A stretch of DNA of 64,000 nt from an uncultured Rhizobium sp. (GTDB lineage: Bacteria > Pseudomonadota > Alphaproteobacteria > Rickettsiales > UBA1997). Under the pieces are notes generated by a model, which did not search any database, had not been told where the DNA came from, and worked only from the letters and a program-made list of their open reading frames with translations. The DNA lies in the NCBI GenBank assembly GCA_964434225.1, contig CAYSUM010000004.1, positions 45,293-109,292 on the forward strand, read 5' to 3'. Position 1 is the first letter of the stretch. Every line of letters starts with the position of its first letter. Below are positions 854-63,036 of the stretch, piece by piece. Made by a program: the position numbers and the translations under genes.

Positions 854-2668
854 ATGAAGAAAATAATCGCGACAATCCTGCTGCTAAGTTGCTCGGTAAG
901 CGCTTACGCAGCAACGGAAAGCGAACAACAAAACATCACCAATCAGCAAAATCAGGTTATTCAAAACCAGAGGCAGATTGAACATGAAAAAGAATTACAA
1001 GTTGAGCTCAAGCAAGTTATTACTGATCAGACCAAAAAAGAAGCGGAAGAAAAATTTGAACAAGATGATCTCTCGTATAATGACGGAAAAGTCGTGCAAA
1101 ATCTAAGATCAATCCAATGTTTTCGGCCGCGTATAATTACCTTTTCAAAAAATAATTTACTCACCTCGGCTGAAGAAAAATCGCTTTCAGAAAAATATCT
1201 CAACAAATGTTTGACTTTGGATTGGTTGCCAAAATTTGATCAAGAAGTTGCGGATCTTTTGTCTAGCAAAGGTTATATAACATCACGCTCGAGCAGCTCG
1301 CAGCAAAGCTTGATCGATGGTGATATGAAGGTACAGGTGATCGAATCTTACATCGAAAAAATTATTATTAATGACGATAACTTTCTCGACAAAGCACAGA
1401 TAAAAACAGTTTTTGGTTTTGATGATTTGCCCAAAGGCGGAAAGATTTTAAATATACACGATATCGAGCCAGCAATTGAGCGCATTAATCGCCTGTCTTC
1501 AAATAAGGCGACGGTAAAAATTATTCAAGGCAGCGCACCAAATAAGTCGATTGTTGTGATTGAAAATCATCCAAAAAATACCAGCAGATTAAATCTTTAT
1601 TATGATAATATTGGAAGCAAAACAACGGGCGTAAGGCGCGAAACTATTGCATTAGCGCAAGACAATTTATTGCATTTGAACGATAGTTTTAATTTAAGCA
1701 GAACGGCAAATGATTTCGATCCCAAAAATGACAAGCGCTACAACAACTCAACAAATGGCAGTTGGTCGGTGCCTTTTGGTAAACATATTTTTACTTTTAG
1801 CGGTGGAAAAAATTCCTATTTCTTTTTAACAGGATCAACTGGAAACGTTCGCGCCAGCGGCTTTACACTAACAAAAGCCGTTGCGATGGAAAGCGGTTTG
1901 ATCAAAGAAAAAACCTACAAAATCAATTCCAATTTCTCTTTAAATAATCGCGACAATCAAATTTTCACCGACGAATTGCGCAACGAAACTCAAAGCAGAA
2001 AATCTACAATCGCTACTCTGGCGATATCCAATACTTTGTTGCTTGATTCGGCGACATTATTTTTAAAACCCTCTTACAGCAAATCTTTAAATATTTTGAA
2101 TGCCAAACAAGATGATGACACAACCGCGCAATTCATGCCTCACGCTGATTTGAATATTTTTAGATTTTATGCAAATTATGCTAAAAAATTTGTGATTTTA
2201 AAATCAAAAACTCCAGCTTCTTACAATTTTAGTTTCGACAGTCAGATGTCAAAAAATCATCTTTATATCATTGATCAATTTTCTTCTGGTGGTTTTTATT
2301 CTGTACGCGGATTCAGGCAGGGCAGCATTTCAGGCGATTCTGGTTTTAATATTCGTAACGAATTTACCATAAATTTAGGTCAATTAATTTTGCCTCAAAT
2401 TAGTGAAGAAAAAAAATCTGCCAATCTTGCGCGCCTAAATTATTTTTCTGCGACGCCATTTTATGATTACGGCCATGTGCAAAATCGCGGTATCGCCAAC
2501 GGCGGTCGTTTAAGCAGCGCGGGTTTAAAAATTGGGTTTAGCAAACAAAACATCAAGGCATCAATGACTTTTGCGCATACAATATCTCGCTCAAGAATGT
2601 TGACGCGAGGTTATGGCGAAGGAGATACAGTCTATTTTGATTTAGGAACGGAATTGAGTTTTTTTTAG
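854..2668 (+). CDS. ShlB/FhaC/HecB-family two-partner-secretion outer-membrane transporter (TpsB)
   Basis: 604 aa with a signal peptide (LLLSCSVSAYA). Family-typical motifs YYDNIGSKTTG and GGFYSVRGF...GDSGF are present, and the C-terminus is aromatic (LSFF). Confidence 0.8.
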   Translation: MKKIIATILLLSCSVSAYAATESEQQNITNQQNQVIQNQRQIEHEKELQVELKQVITDQTKKEAEEKFEQDDLSYNDGKVVQNLRSIQCFRPRIITFSKNNLLTSAEEKSLSEKYLNKCLTLDWLPKFDQEVADLLSSKGYITSRSSSSQQSLIDGDMKVQVIESYIEKIIINDDNFLDKAQIKTVFGFDDLPKGGKILNIHDIEPAIERINRLSSNKATVKIIQGSAPNKSIVVIENHPKNTSRLNLYYDNIGSKTTGVRRETIALAQDNLLHLNDSFNLSRTANDFDPKNDKRYNNSTNGSWSVPFGKHIFTFSGGKNSYFFLTGSTGNVRASGFTLTKAVAMESGLIKEKTYKINSNFSLNNRDNQIFTDELRNETQSRKSTIATLAISNTLLLDSATLFLKPSYSKSLNILNAKQDDDTTAQFMPHADLNIFRFYANYAKKFVILKSKTPASYNFSFDSQMSKNHLYIIDQFSSGGFYSVRGFRQGSISGDSGFNIRNEFTINLGQLILPQISEEKKSANLARLNYFSATPFYDYGHVQNRGIANGGRLSSAGLKIGFSKQNIKASMTFAHTISRSRMLTRGYGEGDTVYFDLGTELSFF

Positions 2669-3387: not shown

Positions 3388-5019
3388 ATGCTGAAGAAAA
3401 ATATTTTTATGATCAAAATTACGGATCTTTTTTTAATAATTATCAGTTCGATTTTAATCGGAATTTTTTACAATCTCAAAACTATCGAATCCGAATTTTT
3501 ACTATGTTTTCAAGATTTGTCATTCTTGAAGATTGCAACATTCTTGCTGGAAATTGCTGCGATTATTTCGGTGCTTTTGGTGTTTTTTTTGGCACTTAGT
3601 TTTAACAAAATTTTGTTAAAAACTTTTCTGATTTTAACTATTTTTATTTCAACTGGCTATCTTTACGTTCTAAATAAATTTGGCACTATCCTTGACGGAG
3701 CCATGATTGCCAATGCTTTGGAAAGCGCTGGTCATGCCGATGAAGTTATTGATTATTCTTTGGGAATTTATTTTTTCTTTTTCGCTTTAGTTCCAGCGTT
3801 GCTGATTTTTCGAGTTGAAATTTCTAAAATTAATCTTCGCAAAAAAATTATTATCAGCGTCGCCAATATAATATTTCTTGCTTTTTTGCAGGTGACATTT
3901 TCTGCCGATAAAATCTTAAAAATTGCCTTTGTGCAATATTCTCCCGCAAATTATGGCACTGCAATTTATGAATATTTTGATCGCTTCCACAATCAATTGC
4001 GGCAAGGAAAAGATCGTCGTTCTTTAAGCGAATTTTATAAATTTCAGCGCGAAAAAGATCCAAAAAATTTTAATGTAATATTGATTATTGGTGAATCTCT
4101 GCGCGCAGATCATTTGGGCTTGAATGGTTACGAAAGAAATACCACGCCGCTTTTATCAGCAACTCCTAATCTTCTAAATTATACAATTTCAGCTTCATTT
4201 AACACCACAACAAGGTCGGTAACTTCAATGTTATCCCATCGCACCAAAGATAATTTTGTTGATATTCCGCCAGAAAAAAGTGTGGTTTCGGTGTTCAAAG
4301 ATTTGGGATTTAAAACTTATTGGTATTCGGCGCAAAGTTCGAAAGAATTTCATAACGGCATGTTAAATATTATGGCGGCGGAAGCTGACGACTATTTTTT
4401 TCGCGATCGCTTATTATCTTCACTTAGATCTCACAAAATTTATGACGAAGCTTTGATTCCTCATTTGCAAAGCGCGCTAAAAAATGGCGGACATAATTTT
4501 ATCGTGCTCCATAGCTTTGGTAATCACATAAGATTTCACGAAAGACATCCTGAAAGCTTTACTGTCTATGTCCCAGAATGTCAGTTGCTGCCGTCTTCTT
4601 GTCCGAAAAAAGATGTGAATAATAGTTACGATAATAGCGTTTTATACACCGATTATTTTGTCTCGAGTGTCATCAAATCTTTGGAAGGCACTAATTCAAT
4701 TTTATTTTTTGCATCCGATCACGGAGCGTTTCTGGGAGAAAATGGTATTTACGCCAATGGCGGCGGAGATGTTGCAAATCTTGATCCGGTCAAAAAAGTT
4801 CCGATGTTTTTTTATATGACCGATCAATTGCGGCGCGATAAGTTTTTCCACAAAAAATTTGTGTCCGCTGCAAAAAAAACCAAACTTACAAATTTGTCGC
4901 ACGATAATTTATTTGATTCTCTACTCGATTGTTCTGGCGTAAAATCTGAATTATTTGATCGAGATTTGAGTATTTGTAAAACCGATCGCAGTAACGAAAG
5001 ATTTTTGAGGAAAAACTAA
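3388..5019 (+). CDS. eptA: Phosphoethanolamine transferase (EptA/sulfatase family, lipid A/LPS modification)
   Basis: 543 aa. The N-terminal part has multiple TM helices, followed by a sulfatase domain with the GESLRADHLGLNGYERNTTP motif typical of EptA-type enzymes. Confidence 0.75.
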   Translation: MLKKNIFMIKITDLFLIIISSILIGIFYNLKTIESEFLLCFQDLSFLKIATFLLEIAAIISVLLVFFLALSFNKILLKTFLILTIFISTGYLYVLNKFGTILDGAMIANALESAGHADEVIDYSLGIYFFFFALVPALLIFRVEISKINLRKKIIISVANIIFLAFLQVTFSADKILKIAFVQYSPANYGTAIYEYFDRFHNQLRQGKDRRSLSEFYKFQREKDPKNFNVILIIGESLRADHLGLNGYERNTTPLLSATPNLLNYTISASFNTTTRSVTSMLSHRTKDNFVDIPPEKSVVSVFKDLGFKTYWYSAQSSKEFHNGMLNIMAAEADDYFFRDRLLSSLRSHKIYDEALIPHLQSALKNGGHNFIVLHSFGNHIRFHERHPESFTVYVPECQLLPSSCPKKDVNNSYDNSVLYTDYFVSSVIKSLEGTNSILFFASDHGAFLGENGIYANGGGDVANLDPVKKVPMFFYMTDQLRRDKFFHKKFVSAAKKTKLTNLSHDNLFDSLLDCSGVKSELFDRDLSICKTDRSNERFLRKN

Positions 5020-10443: not shown

Positions 10444-11736
10444 TTACTTAACTTCCAGAATCACCGCGCCGCCTTGTCCGCCGCCAATGCAAAGTGCTGC
10501 AAAGCCACGATTTTTGCCGCGTCTTTTTAATTCACGAAGTGCGTGAATTACAATTCTTGCTCCCGACATTCCAACTGGATGACCTAAGGCAACGCCGCCG
10601 CCATTTACGTTGATAATTTCAGGATTTATTTCACCCAAAGCTTTATCCAAACCAAGATATTTTTGAGCAAATTCATCTGAAGCAAAGGCGCGCTGACAGC
10701 CAATTACTTGGGCAGCAAAGGCTTCATTAATTTCAAATAGATCAATGTCTTTTACGCCCAAACCGCTTTTGTCAAAAAGTTTTTTTGCAGCAAAAACCGG
10801 CCCCAAACCCATGCGCGAAGGATCTAAACCAGCGTAAGCAAATTCGCGAATGTAACCTAAAACTTCTAAACCCATTTCTTTTGCTTTTGATTCACGCATT
10901 AAAACTGCAAAAGCCGCGCCGTCAGTCACTTGCGACGAGTTTGCAACTGTGACGGTGCCCGTGCCTTTTTCAAAATAAGGTTTTAATTTTGCCAAAGCCT
11001 CAATGGTTTGGCCCTTACGCACGCCTTCGTCTTCTTCAATCATCAAAGAATTATTTTCGTCGTTGTTGAACACGGGAATAATTTCTTCTTTGAAAATTCC
11101 AGTCGCAATTGCCTTCTCAGCTTTTTGATGCGAACGCAAAGAAAACTCGTCTTGTTCTTGGCGAGTAATTTTAAAATCTTTCGCCACATTTTCTGCGGTG
11201 CAGCCCATGATTAACCCAGAAATTGGATCGGTAAGACCTTGAACCAGCCCCACAACTGGCGTTAAAAAGTTCAGTCTAAAAGTTAAAATTGTCGAAATTT
11301 TTTGCTGCAAAGTTTTTGCTTTCATCAAATTAGCAAAAAGTGCCGTCATTTTTTTGCCAAACATTAGCGGAATATTGCTCATTGATTCAACACCGCCGGC
11401 CAAAATAATTTCAGCCTCGCCATTTAAAATTTTTGACGCCGCAGTTGTCATTGCCTCCATTCCCGAAGCGCAATTTCTGTGCACGGTAAAAGCTGGCACG
11501 CTTTCTGGAATTCCAGCTTTTAGCGCAATTACGCGCGCAATATTGGCCGCTTCAGCTGGTTGCGCCACATTGCCAATAATTACTTCGTCAATTTGCTTGG
11601 GATCAACTTTTGACCTGATTAAAACTTCTTTAACAATGCGCGCGCCAAGATCGTGAGCCTTAACATTTTTTAAAACTCCACCAGCCTTACCCATTGGCGA
11701 TCTGAAGCCAGCAACAATTGCGATACGTTCTTTCAT
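10444..11736 (-). CDS. Acetyl-CoA C-acyltransferase (thiolase)
   Basis: Thiolase blocks are present: active-site NCASGM, C-terminal NVNGGGVALGHPVGMSGARI and GFAALCIGGGQG. Confidence 0.9.
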   Translation of the reverse strand: MKERIAIVAGFRSPMGKAGGVLKNVKAHDLGARIVKEVLIRSKVDPKQIDEVIIGNVAQPAEAANIARVIALKAGIPESVPAFTVHRNCASGMEAMTTAASKILNGEAEIILAGGVESMSNIPLMFGKKMTALFANLMKAKTLQQKISTILTFRLNFLTPVVGLVQGLTDPISGLIMGCTAENVAKDFKITRQEQDEFSLRSHQKAEKAIATGIFKEEIIPVFNNDENNSLMIEEDEGVRKGQTIEALAKLKPYFEKGTGTVTVANSSQVTDGAAFAVLMRESKAKEMGLEVLGYIREFAYAGLDPSRMGLGPVFAAKKLFDKSGLGVKDIDLFEINEAFAAQVIGCQRAFASDEFAQKYLGLDKALGEINPEIINVNGGGVALGHPVGMSGARIVIHALRELKRRGKNRGFAALCIGGGQGGAVILEVK

Positions 11737-11824
11737 TTCAATTAAGATTTTAGATTTAGGATTTTGGAATTTATGATTTGTTGAGAACTGTTTTAGACCT
11801 GAAATAATTAAATCAAATTAATTT

Positions 11825-12610
11825 ATGCTTACTCAAGAAATCATCGATTTCGCAAATTATCTGGCAGATATTTCACAGCCAATTGCTAAACAATATTTTC
11901 GTGTAAATAACGGCGAAGTGGCGAAGGACGATGATTCTCCTGTCACCAAAGCTGATCGCGAAATTGAAAAAATTATTCGCGAAGCAATCGAAAAAAAATT
12001 TCCTGATCATGGAATTATCGGCGAAGAATTTGGCAATAAAAATATCGATGCCGATTTTATTTGGGTTTTAGATCCCATCGACGGCACTTCTTCTTTTATT
12101 ATTGGCCGTGCAATTTTTGGAACTTTAATCGCATTAATTCACCAAGGAAAACCCCTCTTGGGAATTATGAATCAACCAATCTCAAACGAGCGCTGGATTG
12201 GAATTGAAGGCCAAGGATCAAGCTTTCAGGGTAAAAAAATTTCTACCCGAAATTGTACAGAAATTTCTGATGCGGTAATGTGTTCCGCCTCATCTTTTTA
12301 TTTCCAAAATGGCGAAGAAAAAATCTTAGAAAAAATTTCTAGCCTGACAAAATACCAAAAAATCGGTGGCGTAATTTACGGTGGAGATTGCTATTCTTAT
12401 GCGTCGCTGGCTTCTGGCTTTGTTGATATTGTGATTGATAGCGGACTTAAAATTTACGATTACGCAGCACTAATTCCAATTATTAAAAATGCCGGCGGCG
12501 TTGTAAGCGACTGGGCAGGAAATGATTTAAAATTAAAATCTGATGTGCGTTTGGTGGCTTGTGCGAATAAAAAATTGCACGAGAAAGTTTTGAAAGTTTT
12601 GAATTTTTAG
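11825..12610 (+). CDS. Inositol monophosphatase family protein (IMPase/HisN-like)
   Basis: IMPase motifs are present (VTKADREIE, WVLDPIDGTSSF, GGDCYSYA). Confidence 0.8.
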   Translation: MLTQEIIDFANYLADISQPIAKQYFRVNNGEVAKDDDSPVTKADREIEKIIREAIEKKFPDHGIIGEEFGNKNIDADFIWVLDPIDGTSSFIIGRAIFGTLIALIHQGKPLLGIMNQPISNERWIGIEGQGSSFQGKKISTRNCTEISDAVMCSASSFYFQNGEEKILEKISSLTKYQKIGGVIYGGDCYSYASLASGFVDIVIDSGLKIYDYAALIPIIKNAGGVVSDWAGNDLKLKSDVRLVACANKKLHEKVLKVLNF

Positions 12611-12617
12611 AGGCGCT

Positions 12618-13223
12618 CTAGAAAGAATAAACCGTTCCCAACTTCACCACTTCTGATCGAACTTGCGCACCACCAACTGCGCTACTCTCAAATTGCTGTT
12701 GGCTATACATAAATTTTATACCAAAACTGTTGGAAATATTAATCTGCGAACCAATTCCAACCGAGCTGCTAGTTGCTTTATTTGAACCAATCACAACTGT
12801 TTTCTGTCCTGGATTATAAGCAAAACTTCCCAAATCATAACTAACAAATCCCGAAACATAGCGATTAAATTCGTAACCAACATTGGCTTTTACGTCGTAA
12901 GTAACTCCTGGAATTCCGCCAACTTGATTTGGCGTTGAGCTATTCGTTGAAGAACCGCCATTTTGCACGGGAGCAACATTGTTGCCCTTTTGCATAAAAA
13001 CTTCTGGCGCTAAGAAAAATCCGTTACCGCTAAATTTATAACCGTAATAACGATCTTCTGCAATCTTACTATCAAGCGAAACCGCATTATTAACATTACC
13101 AATTTTATTATTAGTTTTTGACGGATCGACACCAACATAAAAACCATTTCCATCCTCAGAATAAGCGGCGACATTCGCTGTGATGCCAATAAAAATCAGA
13201 AAAAATATCAGAAAATTTTTCAT
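12618..13223 (-). CDS. Small outer-membrane beta-barrel protein
   Basis: Signal peptide, alternating beta-strand pattern, and a C-terminal ...LGTVYSF beta-signal ending in Phe. Confidence 0.65.
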   Translation of the reverse strand: MKNFLIFFLIFIGITANVAAYSEDGNGFYVGVDPSKTNNKIGNVNNAVSLDSKIAEDRYYGYKFSGNGFFLAPEVFMQKGNNVAPVQNGGSSTNSSTPNQVGGIPGVTYDVKANVGYEFNRYVSGFVSYDLGSFAYNPGQKTVVIGSNKATSSSVGIGSQINISNSFGIKFMYSQQQFESSAVGGAQVRSEVVKLGTVYSF

Positions 13224-13360
13224 AATTTTGTTCTGAGAAAAATTTTTGAATTTAAAGAATCTCTAAAAAACCAAGATTTTTCGAGGGATTTTGCACTCAA
13301 AAAAGACGGTTTTTCAGAGATTCTTTATAAATTGCTTATTTTCGATCTTAATTAATCTAA

Positions 13361-14902
13361 TTAATGTTTGAAATGCCTAGTTTCAATAAAGTAAAGAGCC
13401 ACTCCTTTTTCATCAGCTTTGGCAATTACTTCTGCGTCGCGCATTGAGCCACCCGGAGCGATAATTGCTTTAATGCCAAAAGATGCGGCGATTTCGATGT
13501 TATCAGCAAAAGGAAAAAAGGCGTCAGAGGCTAAAAATCCGCCACTGGCTTTATTAACATTTTTTTCACCATCAAAAAATTCCGCCGCTTTTTTGCAGGC
13601 AATTTCGCATGAATCAACGCGGCTCATTTGACCAGCGCCAATGCCCACAGTTTGAAAATCTTGCACCACAATAATCGCGTTTGATTTCACGTGTTTACAG
13701 ACATTCATGGCAAAAATTAATTGCTCGATTTCGGTTTCATTTGCTGAATTTTTTGTGACTAATTTTAGGTCATTTTCTGTGATATTTTTGCGGTCTAATT
13801 CTTGAATTAAAAACCCGCCAGAAACTGATTTTACTTGGATTTCAGCTGATGTTTTAAAGTCAGCAATAAGCACACGCAGATTTTTTTTCGCCGCCAAAAT
13901 CACTTGCGCTTTTTCATCAATTTCACGCGCGATAATTACTTCAAAAAACATTTTTGAAAGCTCAAGCGCCAAGGCTTCATCGATTTTTCCATTTAACGCC
14001 ACAATGCCACCAAAAGCTGATTTTGGATCGGACGAAAGCGCTCGCGTGTAGGCTTCAAGCAATGTCGCGCCAATTGCAGTTCCGCATGGATTTGCATGTT
14101 TAATAATTGCGCAAGCCGGTTTTTGAAATTCTAAAACCAAATTATAAGCTGCGTCTGAATCGTTTAAATTATTGTAGCTAAGCTCTTTGCCTTGCAGCTG
14201 TTTGGCATTGACAATTCCTGAATTTGAAGTGGAAAAAACCGCCGCTTTTTGGTGTGAATTTTCGCCGTAACGCAATTCCTGTTTTAAATTTCCGCGCAGC
14301 GAAAAATCGCTCTTATTAAACCAGCAAGAAATTGCCAAATCGTAATCAGCAATATTTTTGAAAGCCGCTGCGGCCATGTTTTTCCTGAATTCAAAGGATG
14401 TCGCGTTAGAATTTTTTTCCATCTCCGCAATCAAATTTTGATATTGCGACGCATCAGTAATTACCGTTTTGTAAGCAAAATTTTTCGAAGCCGAACGCAC
14501 CATTGCCGGCCCGCCAATGTCGATATTTTCGATGATTTCTTCTTCGTCAGTAGTTTTGGCAACCGTTTCAACAAACGGATAAAGATTAATGATCAGCAAG
14601 TCGATTGATTCAATTCCGTGCGCCTTTGCCGCCGCCACATGCTGCGAATTATCAAGCACCGCAAGCAACGCGCCGTGCACTTTTGGGTGCAAAGTTTTTA
14701 CACGACCATCCATCATTTCGGGAAATCCGGTGAACTCAGAAATATCTTTTACCGGAATTTTTTTCTCCGCCAAAAGTTTGCAAGTGCCGCCCGTTGAAAT
14801 TATTTCAACACCACGCGCAACCAGATTTTGCGCTAGCTCAACGATGCCGCTTTTGTCTGAAACTGAAATTAAACAACGAGAGATTTTTTGTAAGTTTTGC
14901 AT
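13361..14902 (-). CDS. purH: Bifunctional AICAR transformylase / IMP cyclohydrolase
   Basis: 513 aa with an MGS-like N-terminal domain (ISVSDKSGIVELA...GGT) and an AICARFT domain (KHANPCG, GIGAGQMSRVDS). Confidence 0.95.
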   Translation of the reverse strand: MQNLQKISRCLISVSDKSGIVELAQNLVARGVEIISTGGTCKLLAEKKIPVKDISEFTGFPEMMDGRVKTLHPKVHGALLAVLDNSQHVAAAKAHGIESIDLLIINLYPFVETVAKTTDEEEIIENIDIGGPAMVRSASKNFAYKTVITDASQYQNLIAEMEKNSNATSFEFRKNMAAAAFKNIADYDLAISCWFNKSDFSLRGNLKQELRYGENSHQKAAVFSTSNSGIVNAKQLQGKELSYNNLNDSDAAYNLVLEFQKPACAIIKHANPCGTAIGATLLEAYTRALSSDPKSAFGGIVALNGKIDEALALELSKMFFEVIIAREIDEKAQVILAAKKNLRVLIADFKTSAEIQVKSVSGGFLIQELDRKNITENDLKLVTKNSANETEIEQLIFAMNVCKHVKSNAIIVVQDFQTVGIGAGQMSRVDSCEIACKKAAEFFDGEKNVNKASGGFLASDAFFPFADNIEIAASFGIKAIIAPGGSMRDAEVIAKADEKGVALYFIETRHFKH

Positions 14903-16520: not shown

Positions 16521-17210
16521 TTATGATTGTTGCGAAGAGTTTTCCAGCCAGCTTACCCAAGCATCAAAAAGCGGACATTTTTCTCTGATTTCTTTCAAGC
16601 CAATATCTTCAGCTAAAGGAATTCCATCAGCTGTTTTTGAATAGCCGAAAACCATCTTTTCAATTCTTTTGCTAGGAGCTGTTTCTTTGCTGTCATTTAT
16701 TTCTTCTGGTGATTTTTCCTCTAAAATTTTTCCAAATTCACTTTGGATTTTTTGCTCAACTTTGCTGTCTCCATCACTCAACCTAGAAGACATTTTTTTA
16801 ATATTTGAAAACAACAAACCTTCAAACTCATACATTTGAATATAAGGCTTGAACCTTCTTGCTGCGGTATCTCCAGCTTTTTCTTTTACCGCTTCAAAAA
16901 TTGCATCTTCAACAATTTGCTTTTTCTCTTTGTGAGTGTTGTTGCTTTTTACTTTGCCTTTTCCGGGAACGTCAGACTTCATTCCATAGAAATCAAAGAA
17001 GGTTGTGCATAAAGCGTTTTTGTCACTTTGCAAAAGAGTGGTGATATCTCCAAGAATTCTTGCCTCTTTGACATCGCCGCCTTTTTTACCGGGCCTTCCA
17101 AGTATCGGAGAAGAAACATTGATTCCAAATCCCAATAAATACGGAGAAACTATTTTTTTTACAAAATCCCTTTCGGTTGAGCCCTCGCAAATAATTAACA
17201 CTCGAGTCAT
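16521..17210 (-). CDS. DUF4276-like (Toprim-like) protein, partner of the upstream ABC ATPase
   Basis: MTRVLIICEGSTERDFV... matches the DUF4276 N-terminal EGxxE pattern as I recall it. I prefer the ATG at 17210 because it forms an ATGA overlap with the ATPase stop codon; the track ORF extends to 17243. Confidence 0.6.
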   Translation of the reverse strand: MTRVLIICEGSTERDFVKKIVSPYLLGFGINVSSPILGRPGKKGGDVKEARILGDITTLLQSDKNALCTTFFDFYGMKSDVPGKGKVKSNNTHKEKKQIVEDAIFEAVKEKAGDTAARRFKPYIQMYEFEGLLFSNIKKMSSRLSDGDSKVEQKIQSEFGKILEEKSPEEINDSKETAPSKRIEKMVFGYSKTADGIPLAEDIGLKEIREKCPLFDAWVSWLENSSQQS

Positions 17211-18316
17211 TGCGGCATTCCTCCAAAAATGTCTTTTTCCCACAATTCACCAAGCGTGTAATCTTCAAGCCAGCGATCTAAATCTTCTTTGCTTAAACCA
17301 CCTTCTTCGCTTTTGTCAGGCAATCTACGGAACACCGTTTCATCATTTTTACGATCAGCAATTATCAAATCTTCAGGATCAAATTGACTAATGAGATTTG
17401 TGCTTTGAGTTGCAATTATTACTTGTTTTTTGGAAGCCTTAATTAACTCAGATAGAATGTTTAAAGCGTAAGGATGAAGACCAAGTTCTGGTTCGTCAAT
17501 AATGATGGTTTCTGGCTGAAATTCTTCTGGTTGCAAAAATACCGTTGCTAAACAAATAAAACGTAAAGTTCCGTCAGACAAAGCGTGAATACTCATTGGA
17601 AAGTCTTTACCACGCTCAAACCAATTAAGAACTATCCTATCGCCCAAAGAAGAGAAGGTAAAATTTCCAAAAAACGGTGCGACCAACCTAACAACTTCAA
17701 CTATTTTGTCATAATATTTTTTGTGCTTTTCCTGTAAATTTATTAGAAATGAAGCCAAATTTTCGGCATCAAATCTTAAAAAATTGTAATCACTTGTAAG
17801 TGAAGCCTGTTTAACTTTCGCATCTCTTCCAATATCATGAAAATGATAAGGTTGCCAAGTTCGCATCGCATTTAAAACATATTTATAAACCCCATTATCA
17901 TTTCCACGCTCTTCAATTTTACTTTCTTCGTGACCAGAGCCGCATGAGTAATCTCCCCCCAAATTCCAATAAGCACATTCTTTAGCAAAAACCATTTTAT
18001 TATTTTGCGTAGGAGACAACTCAAATTTGTAGCCGTTATTTCCAAAATATAATTCTCCATTTATTTGCCCCGTAACTTTTCTTCCATATCGCAACAATGC
18101 ATCAGGACCATTTCTAGCAACGGCAAATTGAAAATAAGTCTTAACACCATCTGGCTTGTAAAGCATCGTATTCACCATCTTAAGAAACCCAATAAAATTA
18201 GATTTCCCAGCGCCATTAGCGCCAATAAGAATATTTGTTTTTCTAAGCTCTAAATCACATTCCTTAATAGATTTGTAACCAGAAATTTTTATGCGCGTTA
18301 GTTGTTTTTCATTCAT
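17207..18316 (-). CDS. SMC/RecF-like ABC-type ATPase (AAA_15/21-like)
   Basis: Walker A GANGAGKSN, signature-like LSDGTLRF, Walker B IIIDEPELGLHP, H-loop ATQS. The start ATG overlaps the stop codon of the upstream gene (ATGA). Confidence 0.8.
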   Translation of the reverse strand: MNEKQLTRIKISGYKSIKECDLELRKTNILIGANGAGKSNFIGFLKMVNTMLYKPDGVKTYFQFAVARNGPDALLRYGRKVTGQINGELYFGNNGYKFELSPTQNNKMVFAKECAYWNLGGDYSCGSGHEESKIEERGNDNGVYKYVLNAMRTWQPYHFHDIGRDAKVKQASLTSDYNFLRFDAENLASFLINLQEKHKKYYDKIVEVVRLVAPFFGNFTFSSLGDRIVLNWFERGKDFPMSIHALSDGTLRFICLATVFLQPEEFQPETIIIDEPELGLHPYALNILSELIKASKKQVIIATQSTNLISQFDPEDLIIADRKNDETVFRRLPDKSEEGGLSKEDLDRWLEDYTLGELWEKDIFGGMPQ

Positions 18317-18940: not shown

Positions 18941-20806
18941 TTAGCCAAGTGTTTTGGGATTAGATTCTTTAGAAATCTGAGTGTTATAAATTGTATTAAT
19001 CACACTTGATGGCTTTTTTTTGTCTACATAATCATTGCTTGGTTTTTGACCTTCCAATATTGGATTATATGATACTGAATTCTGTTCTGACTCTTCAAAT
19101 AAAATATCCTTTAAGTTCAACCCTTCTTCAGAATCAATTACACTCCTCAAAACTCTATTTGCAGTCTTCTTTATAAGATCATTTGCAGCTGTAACATGAC
19201 CAACAGTTCTGCGGAAAAAATGAGGGGTTAATTTTTCAAACAATGTTTTTTGTCTCAATCCAAAATCTTCAGCCATTCTATTGGCATCGAACTTGTATTC
19301 TTTTAGAAGATTAATTCTGATTGTTATCTCCAATTTATCTATCTGCCCTTCTTCTATCTGAGCTTCTGGTGACTCTTTTATAACGGAAGTTATCGATTTT
19401 GCTATTTCCTCAGCACGCTCTCCAGCGTCTAAAATTTTTCTAATTTCGAGGTTGCGAACCTCTGGCACAGAAGGAGTTGGCAATCCTAGCTCAAGCAATG
19501 TTTTTAAAAAATCAACTCTGCCATATTTTGCAGCTTGAACGGTGAGTAAAGGATCAGAATCACGAACTGCAAGACTCATAGGATAAACAAAACTAGAGTC
19601 CCCTATTTCTTTTAAAATGCTTGTTAGGGGTCTTGAGTTATAGAGCCCTATTGTTATTGGTACAGCCATTAATGGTAAAAGCGCGACGTTGATCGTGCCG
19701 TGCAAGAAAGCGCCAACTGCTTTGATTGGCCTTGTCACGTAATCGGAAAATGCCGATCTTTCATCTTCAGTTCTAATTTCACGCTCCAACAAATAATCAA
19801 AAATTTCTGCATTTCCCTCTTTAATAGCTTCATGAATTGGTCTTTCGTTGAACTCATTTTTTTCGTCTAGCGTTGCCCCATATTCTGCTAGTAGTTTTAA
19901 TGAATTGAGATCACCATTGCTTACAGCAGTATGTGCTAAACTTTGATCGTTTGCATCAAGATCAAATCCCAATTCTGCCAAGAACTTTATATCCTCGACC
20001 TTTTCCTCAATATTACCTCTTAAAACCGCGTCATGCAATGTCGTTACAAAAAACTTCTTCTCGGGCAAAGTTCTATTTTCTAAATCTTTAATTTTTTTGA
20101 TTAGCTCTTCTCTGTGCGGTATTTGCAAAAGGGTATTTACAAAATCATATTGTTGTCGTTTTACCAACTCTTGAGTTAAAAAATTCTCCAAGAAAAAGGC
20201 TATTTTTTCTGACCCTAGCTCTGAACCTTCGACCTGATTTTGTATAAAAGTTTTCAGTATTTTAATTTGTAAAGAATCATCAAAAGATACCGCTTTTTCT
20301 TTAAGCTTTTGCAGAACTTCGATATCATTTAATAATGGCAACAACAGCATTGATTTCTCTTCGCTGGATCGAATGATTTCTACAAAATCTTTTTGAATGT
20401 CATTACTAGCGCGCCTTTCAATATATTTTAAAAATATATTCTGACCTTGAAATATTTCCTGACCTTGATCGATCTCAAAAAAATCGGATAACGAAATTTT
20501 TCTAATGTTGATTAAGTAATTAAGAATCTTGCTATCTGGACGCTGTTTTACAGTTTGAGAAGTTTGAGAAAATTCTCCCTCCAATATTTCAGAAGAGGTG
20601 CCGTCGCAATAATTCATAATATCTTGAGTTGTTGCACCAACACTTAACAAAACTTGTAAAGATATTTGTTGCCCTTGCTCTAAAGCAAAAGCATTGCGGG
20701 CATTTACATCTGGATCCCTAGAAAGAGATTCTATTGAGGCTTGATTTTGTCTTTGCTCTTCAAAAATTTTTTCTTTAACCTGTTCCTGATTCATAGAGAC
20801 CTTCAA
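18941..20806 (-). CDS. Ankyrin-repeat protein (candidate host-interaction effector)
   Basis: 621 aa. Ankyrin-type repeats are visible: TTLHDAVLRGNIE..., HTAVSNGDLNSLKLLAEYGATLDEKN, RPIHEAIKEGNAEIFDYLLE. An internal hydrophobic segment follows. Confidence 0.75.
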   Translation of the reverse strand: MKVSMNQEQVKEKIFEEQRQNQASIESLSRDPDVNARNAFALEQGQQISLQVLLSVGATTQDIMNYCDGTSSEILEGEFSQTSQTVKQRPDSKILNYLINIRKISLSDFFEIDQGQEIFQGQNIFLKYIERRASNDIQKDFVEIIRSSEEKSMLLLPLLNDIEVLQKLKEKAVSFDDSLQIKILKTFIQNQVEGSELGSEKIAFFLENFLTQELVKRQQYDFVNTLLQIPHREELIKKIKDLENRTLPEKKFFVTTLHDAVLRGNIEEKVEDIKFLAELGFDLDANDQSLAHTAVSNGDLNSLKLLAEYGATLDEKNEFNERPIHEAIKEGNAEIFDYLLEREIRTEDERSAFSDYVTRPIKAVGAFLHGTINVALLPLMAVPITIGLYNSRPLTSILKEIGDSSFVYPMSLAVRDSDPLLTVQAAKYGRVDFLKTLLELGLPTPSVPEVRNLEIRKILDAGERAEEIAKSITSVIKESPEAQIEEGQIDKLEITIRINLLKEYKFDANRMAEDFGLRQKTLFEKLTPHFFRRTVGHVTAANDLIKKTANRVLRSVIDSEEGLNLKDILFEESEQNSVSYNPILEGQKPSNDYVDKKKPSSVINTIYNTQISKESNPKTLG

Positions 20807-60046: not shown

Positions 60047-60340
60047 AAATAATAATCACCACCACTCCTTCTTAAACTTACCCTCATAACCATTCACAAA
60101 GGTTATTTTAAAACGTTGACTTATACCCAAAATCAATTCTAGGCCGAACTATCGCTTCTTGGTAACTAACTCATTTGAAATCCATTAAGTTTAGATGAAG
60201 TTAAAAATTTCTTATCTCCAAACGAATAATTTTTCGTTCCTGATTTTTCATAACGCTGTTGTTGTTAGCACATCTTTTGCTTTTTTTTCTTTCTAAATTC
60301 CGCCCTCGTTGCGGATTTTATAAACTAAAATTCTAAATTT

Positions 60341-61171
60341 ATGTCTATTTTATCTCAACGCCAAGACCAATTAACCTCAGTTTTACAAGCTTGGAATAGC
60401 CTTGCTGAAAAAACACAAAAAGACACCATCAATTTGGTGATGCCTTTAATTGAGAGCGCCAGTCTTTTTACAAAAATTTCTCCAAGCCAAGCTCTGGAAG
60501 CAGAACTTGAGGCTTTCAAAAACAATTATAGCTCAATTTATCAAACCGACATTTCAGCTTTAGGAGCTTCCGATTTCTCTCCCGAGTCAATGCTAATTCT
60601 TGAAAAAATTCACGATATCGATTGTTTGGAAGAAAAATCGTCCGAAGAAAAAAGAGAATTAGTCGTCGCGCATCTTACAGCAGAAGCTGGCTTGACACTG
60701 TCAGAATTCAGAAAAAAACTTCTCAAAGAGCTCGACCATAAATATCAACATGCTCACGCCCGCATTTCGTGGAATTATGGAAAATTGTCCGACGCCATTC
60801 TTCTTCACAATAACCAAGGCGGATTGTCAGCAAAGTTCAATAAAATTGGCGCCATTGAAGATGAGCGAGAATTTTTCTCACAACTGGTTGACCTAAGCAG
60901 AACCATCAACATTCCTGGCAATTTCGATCTTTTAAAAACGCAGTTTGGAATTGATGGAATTGAAGAACATACCGTAATTAATCAAGGCACTTTATATCGC
61001 GCCAATCTTGATAATCCTGCTTTGATTCATCAAATCGAAGGCACCGAAAATGGAGAAAATCTTTTCACAAAAACGCAGGAATTTTTTACTCTACAATCTC
61101 AAAAAAAAGCATCAAAACTGATATCGAAGCCTTGGGAGAAAAATTGGGAGTCACCGATCCCAAAACCATAA
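60341..61171 (+). CDS. Hypothetical protein, probably the 5' part of a split or frameshifted gene
   Basis: No family recognised. The frame ends 63 nt after an A8 run, and the -1 frame continues into the next ORF. Confidence 0.5.
   Translation: MSILSQRQDQLTSVLQAWNSLAEKTQKDTINLVMPLIESASLFTKISPSQALEAELEAFKNNYSSIYQTDISALGASDFSPESMLILEKIHDIDCLEEKSSEEKRELVVAHLTAEAGLTLSEFRKKLLKELDHKYQHAHARISWNYGKLSDAILLHNNQGGLSAKFNKIGAIEDEREFFSQLVDLSRTINIPGNFDLLKTQFGIDGIEEHTVINQGTLYRANLDNPALIHQIEGTENGENLFTKTQEFFTLQSQKKASKLISKPWEKNWESPIPKP
61102..61108 (+). other. A_AAA_AAA slippery heptamer within an A8 run (61101-61108): candidate -1 frameshift or indel site
   Basis: The zero-frame codons are CAA AAA AAA GCA. The -1 frame is open from 60979 and reads ...SKKSIKTDIEALGEKLGVTDPK into ORF 61132..62571. 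Confidence 0.55.
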
Positions 61172-62571
61172 AAACTTGGCAAGACGATTATGTGGCCAAT
61201 GTTAAACCCAATGTCGCGCTGACTATTGGATATGAAATGGAATTTTTATTATTGCCAGTCGGCGGTCCAGCTGGCGCAGCGCAATATTATGAAGAGCAAA
61301 GCGATTTTGAAAAATTGATTAAAGGTTCTGCCGATTTGGATTCCAGAAAGAAAATGCGGGAAAATTATGGCTTTCCACGCGGATATATAGAAGACGCGCC
61401 ACACCTTTTATTGGCTCACACTCCGAATATTTTGCTGCTTTTTTCCAAAGGAGAATTGCAAGAAATTGCGCAGAAAAATAATCAAATAAATCGCGATAAA
61501 AGAGGCGATGTAAAATCTTTCTTGGTCAATAGAAAAACTGGCGATGCCGCAAAAGATAAACTATTTGATGCCGCAATTGGAAACATCGATCTTTTATCCA
61601 GCGAAGAAATTTTCTTTTTCGATCTTTTATTTTTGCGCAGCGATCAAGCAGCCGCATGTAAAATCGAGCTTGATGGCGTATTTGAATTTGACAAAACTAT
61701 TCAAGAAAATTTAGCCAATATTCTTCCCAACATTGCCCATAAAGCCTCTTTTTATTCACAAACTCTCGACATGATTCGCGCTCACGAAGTTTCAATCGGA
61801 CCATTTGAGATTGACGAATCAATCGCCAAAAAAAATATCGCAATCTTTTATTTACGAGGAGTTGCGCAAGAGCATGGTTTGCGCGCAAAAGATCGCGACG
61901 TCCAAATAAATATCGGCGCTTTTCAAGGTGGCAGCGTTTTATTTCAAGTTGATGGAAGTTTAATGACGATTACCGCTCCAAATCAAGAAGCTCAAGTCAA
62001 TGGGTCAACCGCTAAACTGCTTTTAGCAATTCAAAAAGGATTACGAAACGCCATCGAAGATTATCCTTCAATTGCACGCGAAGGCCAAAACGAAGTCAGC
62101 GTTGCGGTTGATCGAAAAAAAGGATTTGATGGCCTTTTGAAAGGAACGCCATTTTATAAATCTTACAGCAAAGAAGCTGGACATTCGGCAGATTCATCAG
62201 CTTTTCTGGTTCATCGCGACAATACTGGAAAATCAGGAATGATACGATTGGCGCGCATCAGCGACAAAATTTCTGTTGCTGAAATCAGACTTATCGGAAA
62301 CAATACTCACGTTCCTAATCATGACGAATCAGTTCGGCTAGTTTTTAACGGAGCTGGAGTTTTGCCAGAAATTATTTTGCCTTACTTAATTACCGAAGTA
62401 AAAAAATTGGGCGATTTATCTGCAGATAGAAACACAGCGGTTTTGGTTGAGCACGACGGTTCAATAACTAAATTGCCTCCCGCAAAAATAGATTACAAAA
62501 AAAGTCGTGATAAACCAAATCCATTTTTAACAACAGTGGAATCTGAAAATGCGACAGATTTACCAAACTAA
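61132..62571 (+). CDS. Hypothetical protein with glutamine-synthetase-like (carboxylate-amine ligase fold) motifs; probably the 3' part of the split gene
   Basis: The only start is a TTG. Motifs TIGYEMEFLL, AHEVSIGPFEI and MIRLARI...AEIRLIGNN recall the GS catalytic blocks ExE, HHEV..GQ.E and R..IR...E.R. Confidence 0.5.
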   Translation: MGEKLGVTDPKTIKTWQDDYVANVKPNVALTIGYEMEFLLLPVGGPAGAAQYYEEQSDFEKLIKGSADLDSRKKMRENYGFPRGYIEDAPHLLLAHTPNILLLFSKGELQEIAQKNNQINRDKRGDVKSFLVNRKTGDAAKDKLFDAAIGNIDLLSSEEIFFFDLLFLRSDQAAACKIELDGVFEFDKTIQENLANILPNIAHKASFYSQTLDMIRAHEVSIGPFEIDESIAKKNIAIFYLRGVAQEHGLRAKDRDVQINIGAFQGGSVLFQVDGSLMTITAPNQEAQVNGSTAKLLLAIQKGLRNAIEDYPSIAREGQNEVSVAVDRKKGFDGLLKGTPFYKSYSKEAGHSADSSAFLVHRDNTGKSGMIRLARISDKISVAEIRLIGNNTHVPNHDESVRLVFNGAGVLPEIILPYLITEVKKLGDLSADRNTAVLVEHDGSITKLPPAKIDYKKSRDKPNPFLTTVESENATDLPN

Positions 62572-62589: not shown

Positions 62590-63036
62590 ATGTCCAACAT
62601 CAAAGTAATTTCACAATATATCAAAGACCTGTCTTTTGAAGTTCCAAATTCGCCACAAATTTTTTTAAATGCCGCAGTAAAGCCTGACATCGAGCTTTCA
62701 ATCAATATCGACGCCACAAAAATTGCTGAAGAAATTTTTGAAGTAAGTTTAAAAATTTCTGCTGATGCCAAAGGCGATAATCAAAGGATTTTTTTGTGCG
62801 AAATTTCTTACGGCGCGGTATTTTCAATCAAAAATATTGAAGCCGATATGTTGGAGCAAATTCTGTTAATTTATTGTCCGAATTTAATTTTCCCTTACTT
62901 AAGAAGAATTGTTACTAACCTTACTTCTGACGGTGGATTTCCTCCGCTGATGCTTGATCCAATTGATTTTGCCGATCTTTATAATCGCAGAAAATTGGCG
63001 GCAAATTCAACACCGATTAACGATACAAAGAACTGA
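62590..63036 (+). CDS. secB: Protein-export chaperone SecB
   Basis: VISQYIKDLSFEVPNSPQIF is the alphaproteobacterial-type SecB N-terminus; 148 aa. Confidence 0.85.
   Translation: MSNIKVISQYIKDLSFEVPNSPQIFLNAAVKPDIELSINIDATKIAEEIFEVSLKISADAKGDNQRIFLCEISYGAVFSIKNIEADMLEQILLIYCPNLIFPYLRRIVTNLTSDGGFPPLMLDPIDFADLYNRRKLAANSTPINDTKN

Follow-up and report, generated by a model that had tools for sequence, protein, structure and literature searches.

Glutamine synthetase (GS; type I, E. coli/Salmonella GlnA and M. mazei GS; Gln-synt_C) holds its metals through E129, E131, E212, E220, H269 and E357, binds the substrate carboxylate in the K320-R321 region, and has an N-terminal beta-grasp domain (Gln-synt_N) that completes the active site of the neighbouring subunit; GS enzymes assemble as dodecameric or decameric rings. 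YbdK, of the GCS2 type, is a single chain of ~370 amino acids (aa) whose GS-like fold starts at the G-x-E-x-E strand without a beta-grasp. PafA and Dop, also derived from GS, bind ATP in a curved beta-sheet cradle and ligate or hydrolyse an isopeptide bond on a protein (PMC3511204). Further GS-like amidoligases, of the Amidoligase_2 type, are found in phages and integrative and conjugative elements and have been linked to conflict systems, as cited in PMC3511204 (Iyer et al. 2009). Here we compare with these systems a gene, gene X, that lies at 60341-62571 on the + strand of a 64,000-nt stretch of DNA (the window; contig CAYSUM010000004.1, positions 45,293 to 109,292) from an uncultured Rhizobium sp. 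placed by GTDB in Rickettsiales, UBA1997. We think it likely, with some reserve, that gene X is one gene for a cytoplasmic two-domain ligase of GS fold, belonging to an unannotated family, dispensable, fast-evolving, and frameshifted in this strain.

Structure of gene X and its frame break

The original prediction had flagged 61132-62571, an open reading frame (ORF) of 479 aa on the + strand with a TTG start, for GS-like motifs in three peptides; its translation indeed holds TIGYEMEFLLLP, then IRAHEVSIGPFEIDE, then SGMIRLARISDKISVAEIRLIGNNTH. This ORF is real but represents only the 3' two-thirds of the gene. An ORF of 276 aa in another frame (60341-61171) overlaps it by 40 nt; both frames are open across a run of eight A (A8, 61101-61108), and the overlap comes after the run. 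Inserting one A in A8 gives a single ORF of 743 codons that matches homologues of 690-790 aa end to end, so the fused 743-aa sequence put forward earlier was right, and it provides the residue numbers used below unless stated otherwise. The gene is thus made up as follows.

60341..62571, + strand: whole of gene X, 743 codons with one base restored; assembled as ORFs 60341-61171 and 61132-62571
61101..61108, + strand: A8 run and frame break, 8 nt between TCTC and GCATC (9 nt in the orthologue at locus L002)
60341..61108, + strand: N-terminal all-alpha domain, residues 1-256; predicted local distance difference test (pLDDT) of 92.8 when modelled alone with AlphaFold2; without Pfam or NCBIfam match
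61109..62571, + strand: GS-like region, residues 257-743, from model secondary structure, Foldseek, hhalign and conservation by segment

The orthologue at L002, 73% identical, reads CAG AAA AAA AGC (9 nt) where the window reads AAAAAAAA (8 nt). On this comparison the lesion is a 1-nt deletion, in which either the G was lost or a G-to-A change was followed by slippage. The identical A8 and 276+479 split are found at L001, in a GenBank metagenome assembly (GCA_013558295.1), and at L032 and L033, in Logan assemblies of two sequencing runs. Since L001 carries A8 and yet differs from the window by 4 single-nucleotide polymorphisms (SNPs) in the 8.9 kb shared, it represents a second strain whose frame is broken at this very point. 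Elsewhere in the window, ORFs that overlap in pairs encode complete proteins (e.g. DUF520 and ribosomal protein S4), which shows that the assembly is not generally corrupted at homopolymers; together with the same A8 in independent assemblies and in a strain that differs by SNPs, these complete pairs exclude an assembly-wide homopolymer error.

An A_AAA_AAA heptamer is present at the frame break. No stimulatory RNA structure was found downstream of this slip site (fold z = -0.82), nor a Shine-Dalgarno-like sequence upstream, and the orthologues at L002, L004, L034 and L036 are in frame at the corresponding position. The unstructured downstream RNA and the in-frame orthologues rule out a conserved programmed -1 frameshift. 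Because of the deletion, we infer that the strain most likely makes little or no full-length protein: its products would be at most the 276-aa N-terminal fragment and possibly a separately initiated C-terminal fragment, and traces of full-length product might arise by slippage on A8. In the AT-rich Buchnera and Blochmannia, frameshifts in poly(A) tracts are reportedly rescued by transcriptional slippage, as Tamas and colleagues are said to have described in PNAS in 2008. Gene X is alike in having a 1-nt A-run deletion in an otherwise intact gene of a low-GC, small genome, but its tract of 8 A is shorter and its orthologues are in frame; tracts usually reported to slip efficiently have 9-10 A or more. 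Apart from the single deletion both halves of the split gene are fully open and align with intact homologues throughout, and the window copy is most likely a recently inactivated gene. For annotation, the two ORFs of 276 aa and 479 aa, each a 'hypothetical protein', should become one gene, flagged as frameshifted.

A two-domain family with a predicted fold like that of glutamine synthetase

Searched against 5.8 billion proteins, the fused sequence yielded 24 relatives at identities from 76% down to 26%, nearly all of 690-775 aa with 95-99% query coverage and none with a Pfam domain, as well as a 479-aa entry identical to ORF 61132-62571. With HMMER, an exhaustive profile search over 1.84 billion cluster representatives gave just 65 proteins; each belongs to this two-domain family, whole or as a fragment, and none is a GS. 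The window ORFs had no match in Pfam or NCBIfam at E<=1, and PADLOC and PHROG scans, run on window ORFs and on as many as 43 members of the family, were empty or returned noise. No GS was found when the family was searched against PDB sequences; the matches obtained there with a single sequence and with a profile (a designed repeat protein, LexA and Lhca4) were spurious.

Genomic copies lie in uncultured aquatic metagenome-assembled genomes of 31-39% GC, mostly labelled Rickettsiales and otherwise 'Rickettsia', Pelagibacterales, 'Rhizobium' or Alphaproteobacteria. One copy sits on a 1.5-Mb contig, and for one homologue (P0026) no contig was located. As judged from these copies, the family, unannotated before, does not extend beyond uncultured freshwater alphaproteobacteria with small, low-GC genomes. 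The freshwater Rickettsiales family UBA1997 is described as living epibiotically on cryptophyte algae and as restricted to fresh water, with small genomes that retain amino-acid biosynthesis (bioRxiv 10.1101/2023.01.31.526412). Genes of the window include purH, ilvBN and those for a thiolase, ribonucleotide reductase, PBP1 and ComEC, a content that fits this description. Given the Rickettsiales labels of related genomes and the reported epibiotic life of UBA1997, host association of the source bacterium is plausible, although the window nonetheless encodes purH, ilvBN and other biosynthetic genes.

An AlphaFold2 model was built from a 24-sequence alignment (mean pLDDT 89.7, predicted template-modelling (TM) score 0.89). 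Residues 1-256 are modelled as 14 helices with no strand, and residues ~257-743 as a mixed alpha/beta region with long strands at 292-306, 481-490, 514-529, 635-639 and 645-650. The latter region contains a helical insertion of ~160 residues (about 311-470) after its first strand, and the C-terminal ~45 residues, the least conserved segment of the family, are of low confidence in the model. With Foldseek, 50 of the 50 PDB matches listed were GS or GS-like enzymes (GmaS, 1-naphthylamine GS), the best being M. mazei GS (8ufj_B; E 1.7e-4, prob 1.00, ~480 aligned columns, 9% identity). The N-terminal domain had no relative in the PDB by Foldseek (best E 0.43, TM-score <=0.22); what had been described as an N-terminal region of roughly 260 aa is therefore a separate helical domain of 256 residues without recognisable relative in Foldseek, Pfam or NCBIfam.

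We next aligned blocks of a 43-sequence family alignment (A2, identity down to 17%) with hhalign to a profile of 12 GS sequences, made of E. coli GlnA and plasmid-borne GlnA, GlnT and GS-family genes. A multi-sequence profile was needed, as the family profile was uninformative against single E. coli GlnA or YbdK. A canonical glnA, sought in the window as a comparator, was not found there. The family blocks proved colinear with GS, motif on motif, as listed here with two conserved motifs of the N-terminal domain.

60740..60757, + strand: N-terminal domain motif K134-Y135-x-x-A138-H139 (KYQHAH), columns invariant or nearly so
60953..60985, + strand: N-terminal domain motif D205-G-I-E208-E209-H210-x-x-x-N214-Q215 (DGIEEHTVINQ), columns invariant or nearly so
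61228..61245, + strand: first-strand motif G297-Y-E299-M-E301-F; G297-x-E299-x-E301-F aligns to GS G127-P-E129-P-E131-F (P 0.019-0.032); model strand 292-306
61765..61815, + strand: LDMIRAHEVSIGPFEIDE block with E483 and E490, from hhalign and conservation; RAH-E483 aligns to GS HHH-E212, and F-E490-I to GS N-E220-V, E490 being unconserved in the family; model strand 481-490
61903..61911, + strand: Q522-I-N524 (VQINIG), columns invariant; V-Q522-I-N524 aligns to GS M-H269-C-H271, with invariant Gln and Asn for the two histidines; model strand 514-529
62110..62121, + strand: D591-R-K593-K594 (VDRKKG), D591 and K593 invariant; D-R-K593-K594 aligns to GS S-Y-K320-R321
62212..62247, + strand: H625-R-D-N-T-G-K631-S-G-M-I-R636, near-invariant; G-K631-S-G-x-x-R636 aligns to GS N-R339-S-A-S-I-R344, K631 matching R339 (Arg to Lys) and R636 matching R344
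62281..62310, + strand: E648-I-R650-L-I-G-N-N655-T-H657, near-invariant; E648-x-R650...N655-x-H657 aligns to GS E357-V-R359...N-P-Y; model strand 645-650

The whole 455-700 block aligned to the GS profile with P 0.009. The two blocks scored 27.2 and 26.9, compared with 14.8+-2.2 (max 20.7) and 13.2+-2.2 (max 18.5) for 30 column-shuffled GS decoys and with 14.6 and 16.6 for reversed GS profiles, and thus stand ~5-6 standard deviations (SD) over the shuffled decoys. The residues that align coincide with those that the family conserves, which are invariant or reach at least 85% conservation over the 43 sequences (G297, E299, E301, E483, Q522, N524, K631, R636, E648, R650, N655 and H657 being invariant or nearly so), and the motif residues all fall on predicted strands, in GS order. 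The fold thus stands as it was first proposed: all 50 listed structural matches are GS or GS-like, and the motifs fall on catalytic positions. Altogether, these results support a predicted GS-like carboxylate-amine ligase fold for the C-terminal ~480 residues.

Not all of the catalytic residues were found in place. The family keeps the equivalents of E129, E131, E212, E357, R344 and R359, whereas H269 is replaced by Gln, H271 by Asn and R339 by Lys, and E220 is lost; four of the six GS metal ligands are therefore kept (E299, E301, E483 and E648), Q522 standing for H269 and the unconserved E490 for E220. The elements retained (first-strand glutamates, E212 and E357 equivalents, the E-x-R arginine, and basic residues at R321, R339 and R344) argue for a functional nucleotide/metal site and for GS-type chemistry, while the Gln/Asn pair and the loss of E220 suggest an altered metal or nucleotide coordination. 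In such a mechanism, ATP and Mg/Mn would bind the concave beta-sheet, the substrate carboxylate would be activated as an acyl-phosphate, and an amine would capture this intermediate to yield an amide or isopeptide bond. Substrate specificity would be provided by the helical N-terminal domain and the ~160-aa insertion, which are the obvious candidates for substrate recognition; the former has an invariant polar cluster (K134, Y135, H139, D205, E208, E209, H210, N214 and Q215), and the latter carries invariant D332, R336 and E423.

The product of gene X is therefore alike to GS in fold, in the order of its active-site strands, and in its G-x-E-x-E, H-E, basic-x4-R and E-x-R...N-x-aromatic motifs. 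It differs in having the 256-aa helical domain in place of the beta-grasp and the insertion after the first strand, in the family residues (Gln, Asn, Lys and an unconserved position) found at H269, H271, R339 and E220, and in belonging to a family that, unlike GS, is hypervariable, recurrently inactivated and taxonomically narrow. Lacking a profile match and the beta-grasp, and with two of six metal ligands changed, it is outside GS proper. YbdK/GCS2 is alike as a single-chain GS-like fold that starts at the G-x-E-x-E strand without a beta-grasp, but lacks the helical N-terminal domain and the large insertion. An 8-sequence YbdK/GCS2 profile aligned to the family with the first and E-x-R strands in register at P 0.05-0.33, weaker than the GS blocks (P 0.019 and 0.009), whereas GS against GCS2, used as positive control, gave P 4.8e-5; hmmscan of the 43 family members found no match to GCS2. 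Profile comparison, which had been proposed as a check, thus bore out the GS blocks and less so GCS2. Membership of the carboxylate-amine ligase superfamily is supported at fold level, and membership of GCS2 fails.

PafA and Dop offer a precedent for a GS-like fold that acts on macromolecules and, with Dop, for a hydrolase on the same scaffold (PMC3511204). PafA, compared by its description, differs in its layout of a ~400-aa N-terminal ligase domain and a ~70-aa C-terminal domain; neither protein was among the 50 Foldseek PDB matches listed, and no Pup-like or proteasome genes were found near gene X in the loci compared. The likeness to the Amidoligase_2 type consists in a divergent GS-like fold. 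Among viral structures (BFVD) nothing was significant, the top and eighth matches being annotated 'putative amidoligase enzyme' (E 0.036 and 1.7, prob <=0.30), and the family had no match to this type in Pfam (E<=10) or PHROG. Gene X thus adds a structurally confident, unannotated family to the GS/carboxylate-amine ligase superfamily, with an unprecedented helical N-terminal domain and a Gln/Asn pair replacing GS active-site histidines, and should be useful for charting how far the GS catalytic scaffold can diverge. The frameshift, the His to Gln/Asn changes in the metal/ATP site and the exceptional evolutionary rate described below go beyond the original prediction.

Rapid evolution and repeated inactivation within a conserved locus

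In the clade of the window, gene X is embedded in the arrangement ilvB-ilvN-rpmG-glpX-X-secB-yceI. Its syntenic neighbours are 84-97% identical to the window proteins, compared with 74%, 49%, 48%, 32%, 30% and 28% for gene X itself. By the Nei-Gojobori method, the non-synonymous divergence (dN) of gene X and ilvB was 0.167 vs 0.063 at L002, 0.461 vs 0.093 at L036 and 0.808 vs 0.080 at L015, and overall gene X has 2.6-10x the dN of its syntenic neighbours. Its ratio of dN to synonymous divergence (dS) is 0.2-0.4, against 0.05-0.14 for the neighbours, ratios that are rough because dS is near saturation. How strongly gene X is accelerated does not follow the divergence of its neighbours (its identity is 74% at a locus where ilvB has 90%, and only 30% where ilvB has 88%), which suggests recombinational allele replacement or episodic acceleration. 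Even between the window and L001, 4 of 4 SNPs lie inside the 2.2-kb gene X, three synonymous and one causing G414E.

Independent 1-nt deletions have struck gene X in four lineages, and so at least four times, in each case within or at a Lys-Lys poly(A) tract; besides the A8 of the window, these are:

L005: 1-nt deletion, A6 in DRKKG
L011: 1-nt deletion, A7 in PEKKEEF (A8 in L006, L013 and L038)
L038: 1-nt deletion, A5 in FYKKLA

One 90%-identity cluster even contains both intact members of 741 aa and split members of 182+557 aa, from several sources. As the broken copies are otherwise intact, these knock-out events are recent. A-runs of at least 7 occur at 2.7 per kb in gene X vs 2.1 per kb over the window; the tracts, being no denser than in the window at large, look like ordinary mutational weak points and not like an obvious engineered switch. 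Over the whole window, A/T runs number 93 of length 7, 37 of length 8 and one of length 9, with none longer, an abrupt stop that points to a technical ceiling or to long slippery tracts being selected against.

In other clades gene X is flanked by aspartate kinase and a PEBP-family gene, or by sucB and sucA. As its position differs between clades, a conserved partner gene or operon partner is ruled out, and no secretion-system, immunity or partner gene is conserved beside it in the loci compared. Within otherwise highly conserved synteny, gene X marks a hot spot confined to one gene, where evolution is rapid and inactivation recurs. Its host lineage, a little-known freshwater Rickettsiales-like group, stands between free-living and host-dependent life, and the gene merits testing for interaction with a host, competitor or phage.

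The neighbourhood has further features of its own. SecB (window 62590-63036) is 67-70% identical where ilvB and glpX are 84-92% (L004, L015 and L036), a divergence far milder than that of gene X. At L036, a variable island downstream of secB-yceI (10525-14295) adjoins the conserved block that holds gene X; it is restriction-modification-like, with a GIY-YIG protein, two DNA methylases and a BpuJI_N/NOV_C protein. At L038 (1-3799), where gene X sits between sucB and sucA, a giant protein of >2,500 aa without Pfam domains and an Imm_superinfect-family gene are also encoded. Upstream of gene X the window has an unusually long intergenic region of 294 nt (60047-60340), with a hairpin and T-run at 60299-60315, directly ahead of the ATG, and a motif, CTGTTGTTGTTAGCAC, common to the window and L002 and found in variant form at L014, L016 and L018. 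This region had no Rfam match even at E<=1 and is little conserved among syntenic loci.

Competing explanations and other features of the window

Several observations weigh against a GS-fold ligase that is dispensable and inactivated here. In absolute sequence terms the homology to GS is weak, with hhalign probabilities of just 2-5%, and no GS-type family was found when the 43 family members were scanned against Pfam with hmmscan, even at E<=10. The Foldseek TM-scores are low (TMt ~0.36, root-mean-square deviation ~10 A for 8ufj_B), so that only the core fold is common with GS and much of the structure differs, which is expected from the ~160-residue insertion and the missing beta-grasp domain. 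That the conserved residues cluster in one pocket, and that the N-terminal domain touches it, is conjecture. The changed ligands (H269 to Gln, E220 lost) could go with a different binding of metal or nucleotide, a Dop-like hydrolase or a dead enzyme, and the clade-variable neighbourhood gives no clue to the substrate. Finally, the 3:1 ratio of synonymous to non-synonymous SNPs that separate the window from L001 after the frameshift is a weak hint that purifying selection may still act on the split gene, against a complete loss of function.

The low TM-scores and hhalign probabilities, and the fact that no sequence-database model recognises the family, would also be seen if the likeness to GS were a convergence or modelling artefact and the protein a non-ligase, scaffold or pseudoenzyme. 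We regard this as improbable, given the high confidence of the model, the 50 of 50 top matches listed from one superfamily, three sequence blocks that are colinear on catalytic motifs at 5-6 SD above decoys, and aligned residues that are precisely the family-invariant ones; the best viral matches, non-significant as they are, are also annotated as amidoligases. About as improbable is a housekeeping enzyme, i.e. a divergent GS, glutamate-cysteine ligase or gamma-glutamyl ligase that replaces the canonical one. True GS enzymes are the best structural matches, equivalents of the GS glutamate and phosphate binders are retained, and the gene has housekeeping neighbours (ilvBN, rpmG, glpX and secB in the window; lysC, purM and sucAB in other clades). 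Yet no Gln-synt_C, GCS2 or NCBIfam model matches the protein, the beta-grasp domain is absent, the histidines H269 and H271 have given way to other residues and E220 is missing; a core enzyme is not expected to evolve 3-10x faster than its neighbours and to be frameshifted in four lineages, nor to have just 65 family representatives in 1.84 billion.

A more serious competitor, possible even if we lean away from it, is that gene X is simply a young pseudogene here, dispensable and lost by genome streamlining, its speed reflecting relaxed constraint and not an arms race. Every assembly of the window lineage carries the frameshift, three further lineages have independent frameshifts, and dN/dS exceeds that of the neighbours; the slip site without downstream structure or upstream Shine-Dalgarno-like sequence, and the in-frame orthologues, likewise speak for a lesion and not a conserved programmed event. 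However, both halves remain open and align throughout with intact homologues, the SNPs since the frameshift are mostly synonymous, and the motifs are invariant and most loci intact, from which it follows that selection maintains the family overall. The same recurrent deletions could be read as the switch of a phase-variable contingency or conflict locus, in which a GS-like effector aimed at the eukaryotic partner or at competitors, or else an anti-phage factor, has its surface under diversifying selection and is turned on and off by slippage in the Lys-Lys poly(A) tracts. Four independent 1-nt poly(A) deletions, intact and broken alleles in one 90%-identity cluster, a dN of 2.6-10x that of the neighbours which is not clock-like relative to their divergence, catalytic residues invariant despite this speed, and a disordered C-terminal tail that is conserved least would all suit such a locus, as would the ankyrin-repeat protein and two-partner-secretion transporter encoded in the window and the report of freshwater Rickettsiales as cryptophyte epibionts (bioRxiv 10.1101/2023.01.31.526412). 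We nevertheless find it unlikely: the tracts are short (5-9 A) and of about window-wide density, the four events are all deletions, with no insertion alleles or reversions seen, dN/dS is <1, PADLOC and PHROG give no match, a signal peptide is missing, and no gene for secretion, immunity or a partner is conserved next to it.

The original prediction had also raised a secreted modifying enzyme. By Kyte-Doolittle hydropathy, as opposed to a dedicated predictor, no Sec signal peptide or transmembrane segment was found in the window protein and 7 homologues (maximum of 1.51 in a 19-residue window; hydrophilic N-terminus). The effector idea is consistent with fast evolution and with ON/OFF alleles and, as such, is speculation. 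In its most specific form, which we would entertain with greater scepticism still, a new class of protein or peptide ligase of GS fold, or an amidase acting in reverse, would take part in an arms race of epibiotic freshwater Rickettsiales with their algal or protist partner or with phages, and the frameshift would be its OFF state and not the death of the gene. The helical N-terminal domain would recognise a fast-changing macromolecular target and slippage at the Lys-Lys poly(A) tracts would toggle expression, which would explain a hypervariable surface around an invariant active site. We therefore retain a cytoplasmic GS-fold ligase, dispensable and frameshifted in this strain, as the likely account of gene X.

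Elsewhere in the window, an ankyrin-repeat protein of 621 aa is encoded at 18941-20806 (- strand; Ank_2, E 5e-14; no NCBIfam match); bacterial ankyrin proteins are often linked to eukaryotic-host interaction. A two-partner-secretion outer-membrane transporter of the ShlB/FhaC type with POTRA domains (E 9e-58) lies at 854-2668 (+ strand). A homologue of EptA/MCR-like phosphoethanolamine-lipid A transferases at 3388-5019 (+ strand) scores under curated cut-offs and is thus a distant family member. At 16521-18316 (- strand), adjacent genes for an AAA_21/AAA_15 (AbiEii/OLD-like) ATPase and a DUF4276 protein resemble a small module of the defence or toxin-antitoxin type.

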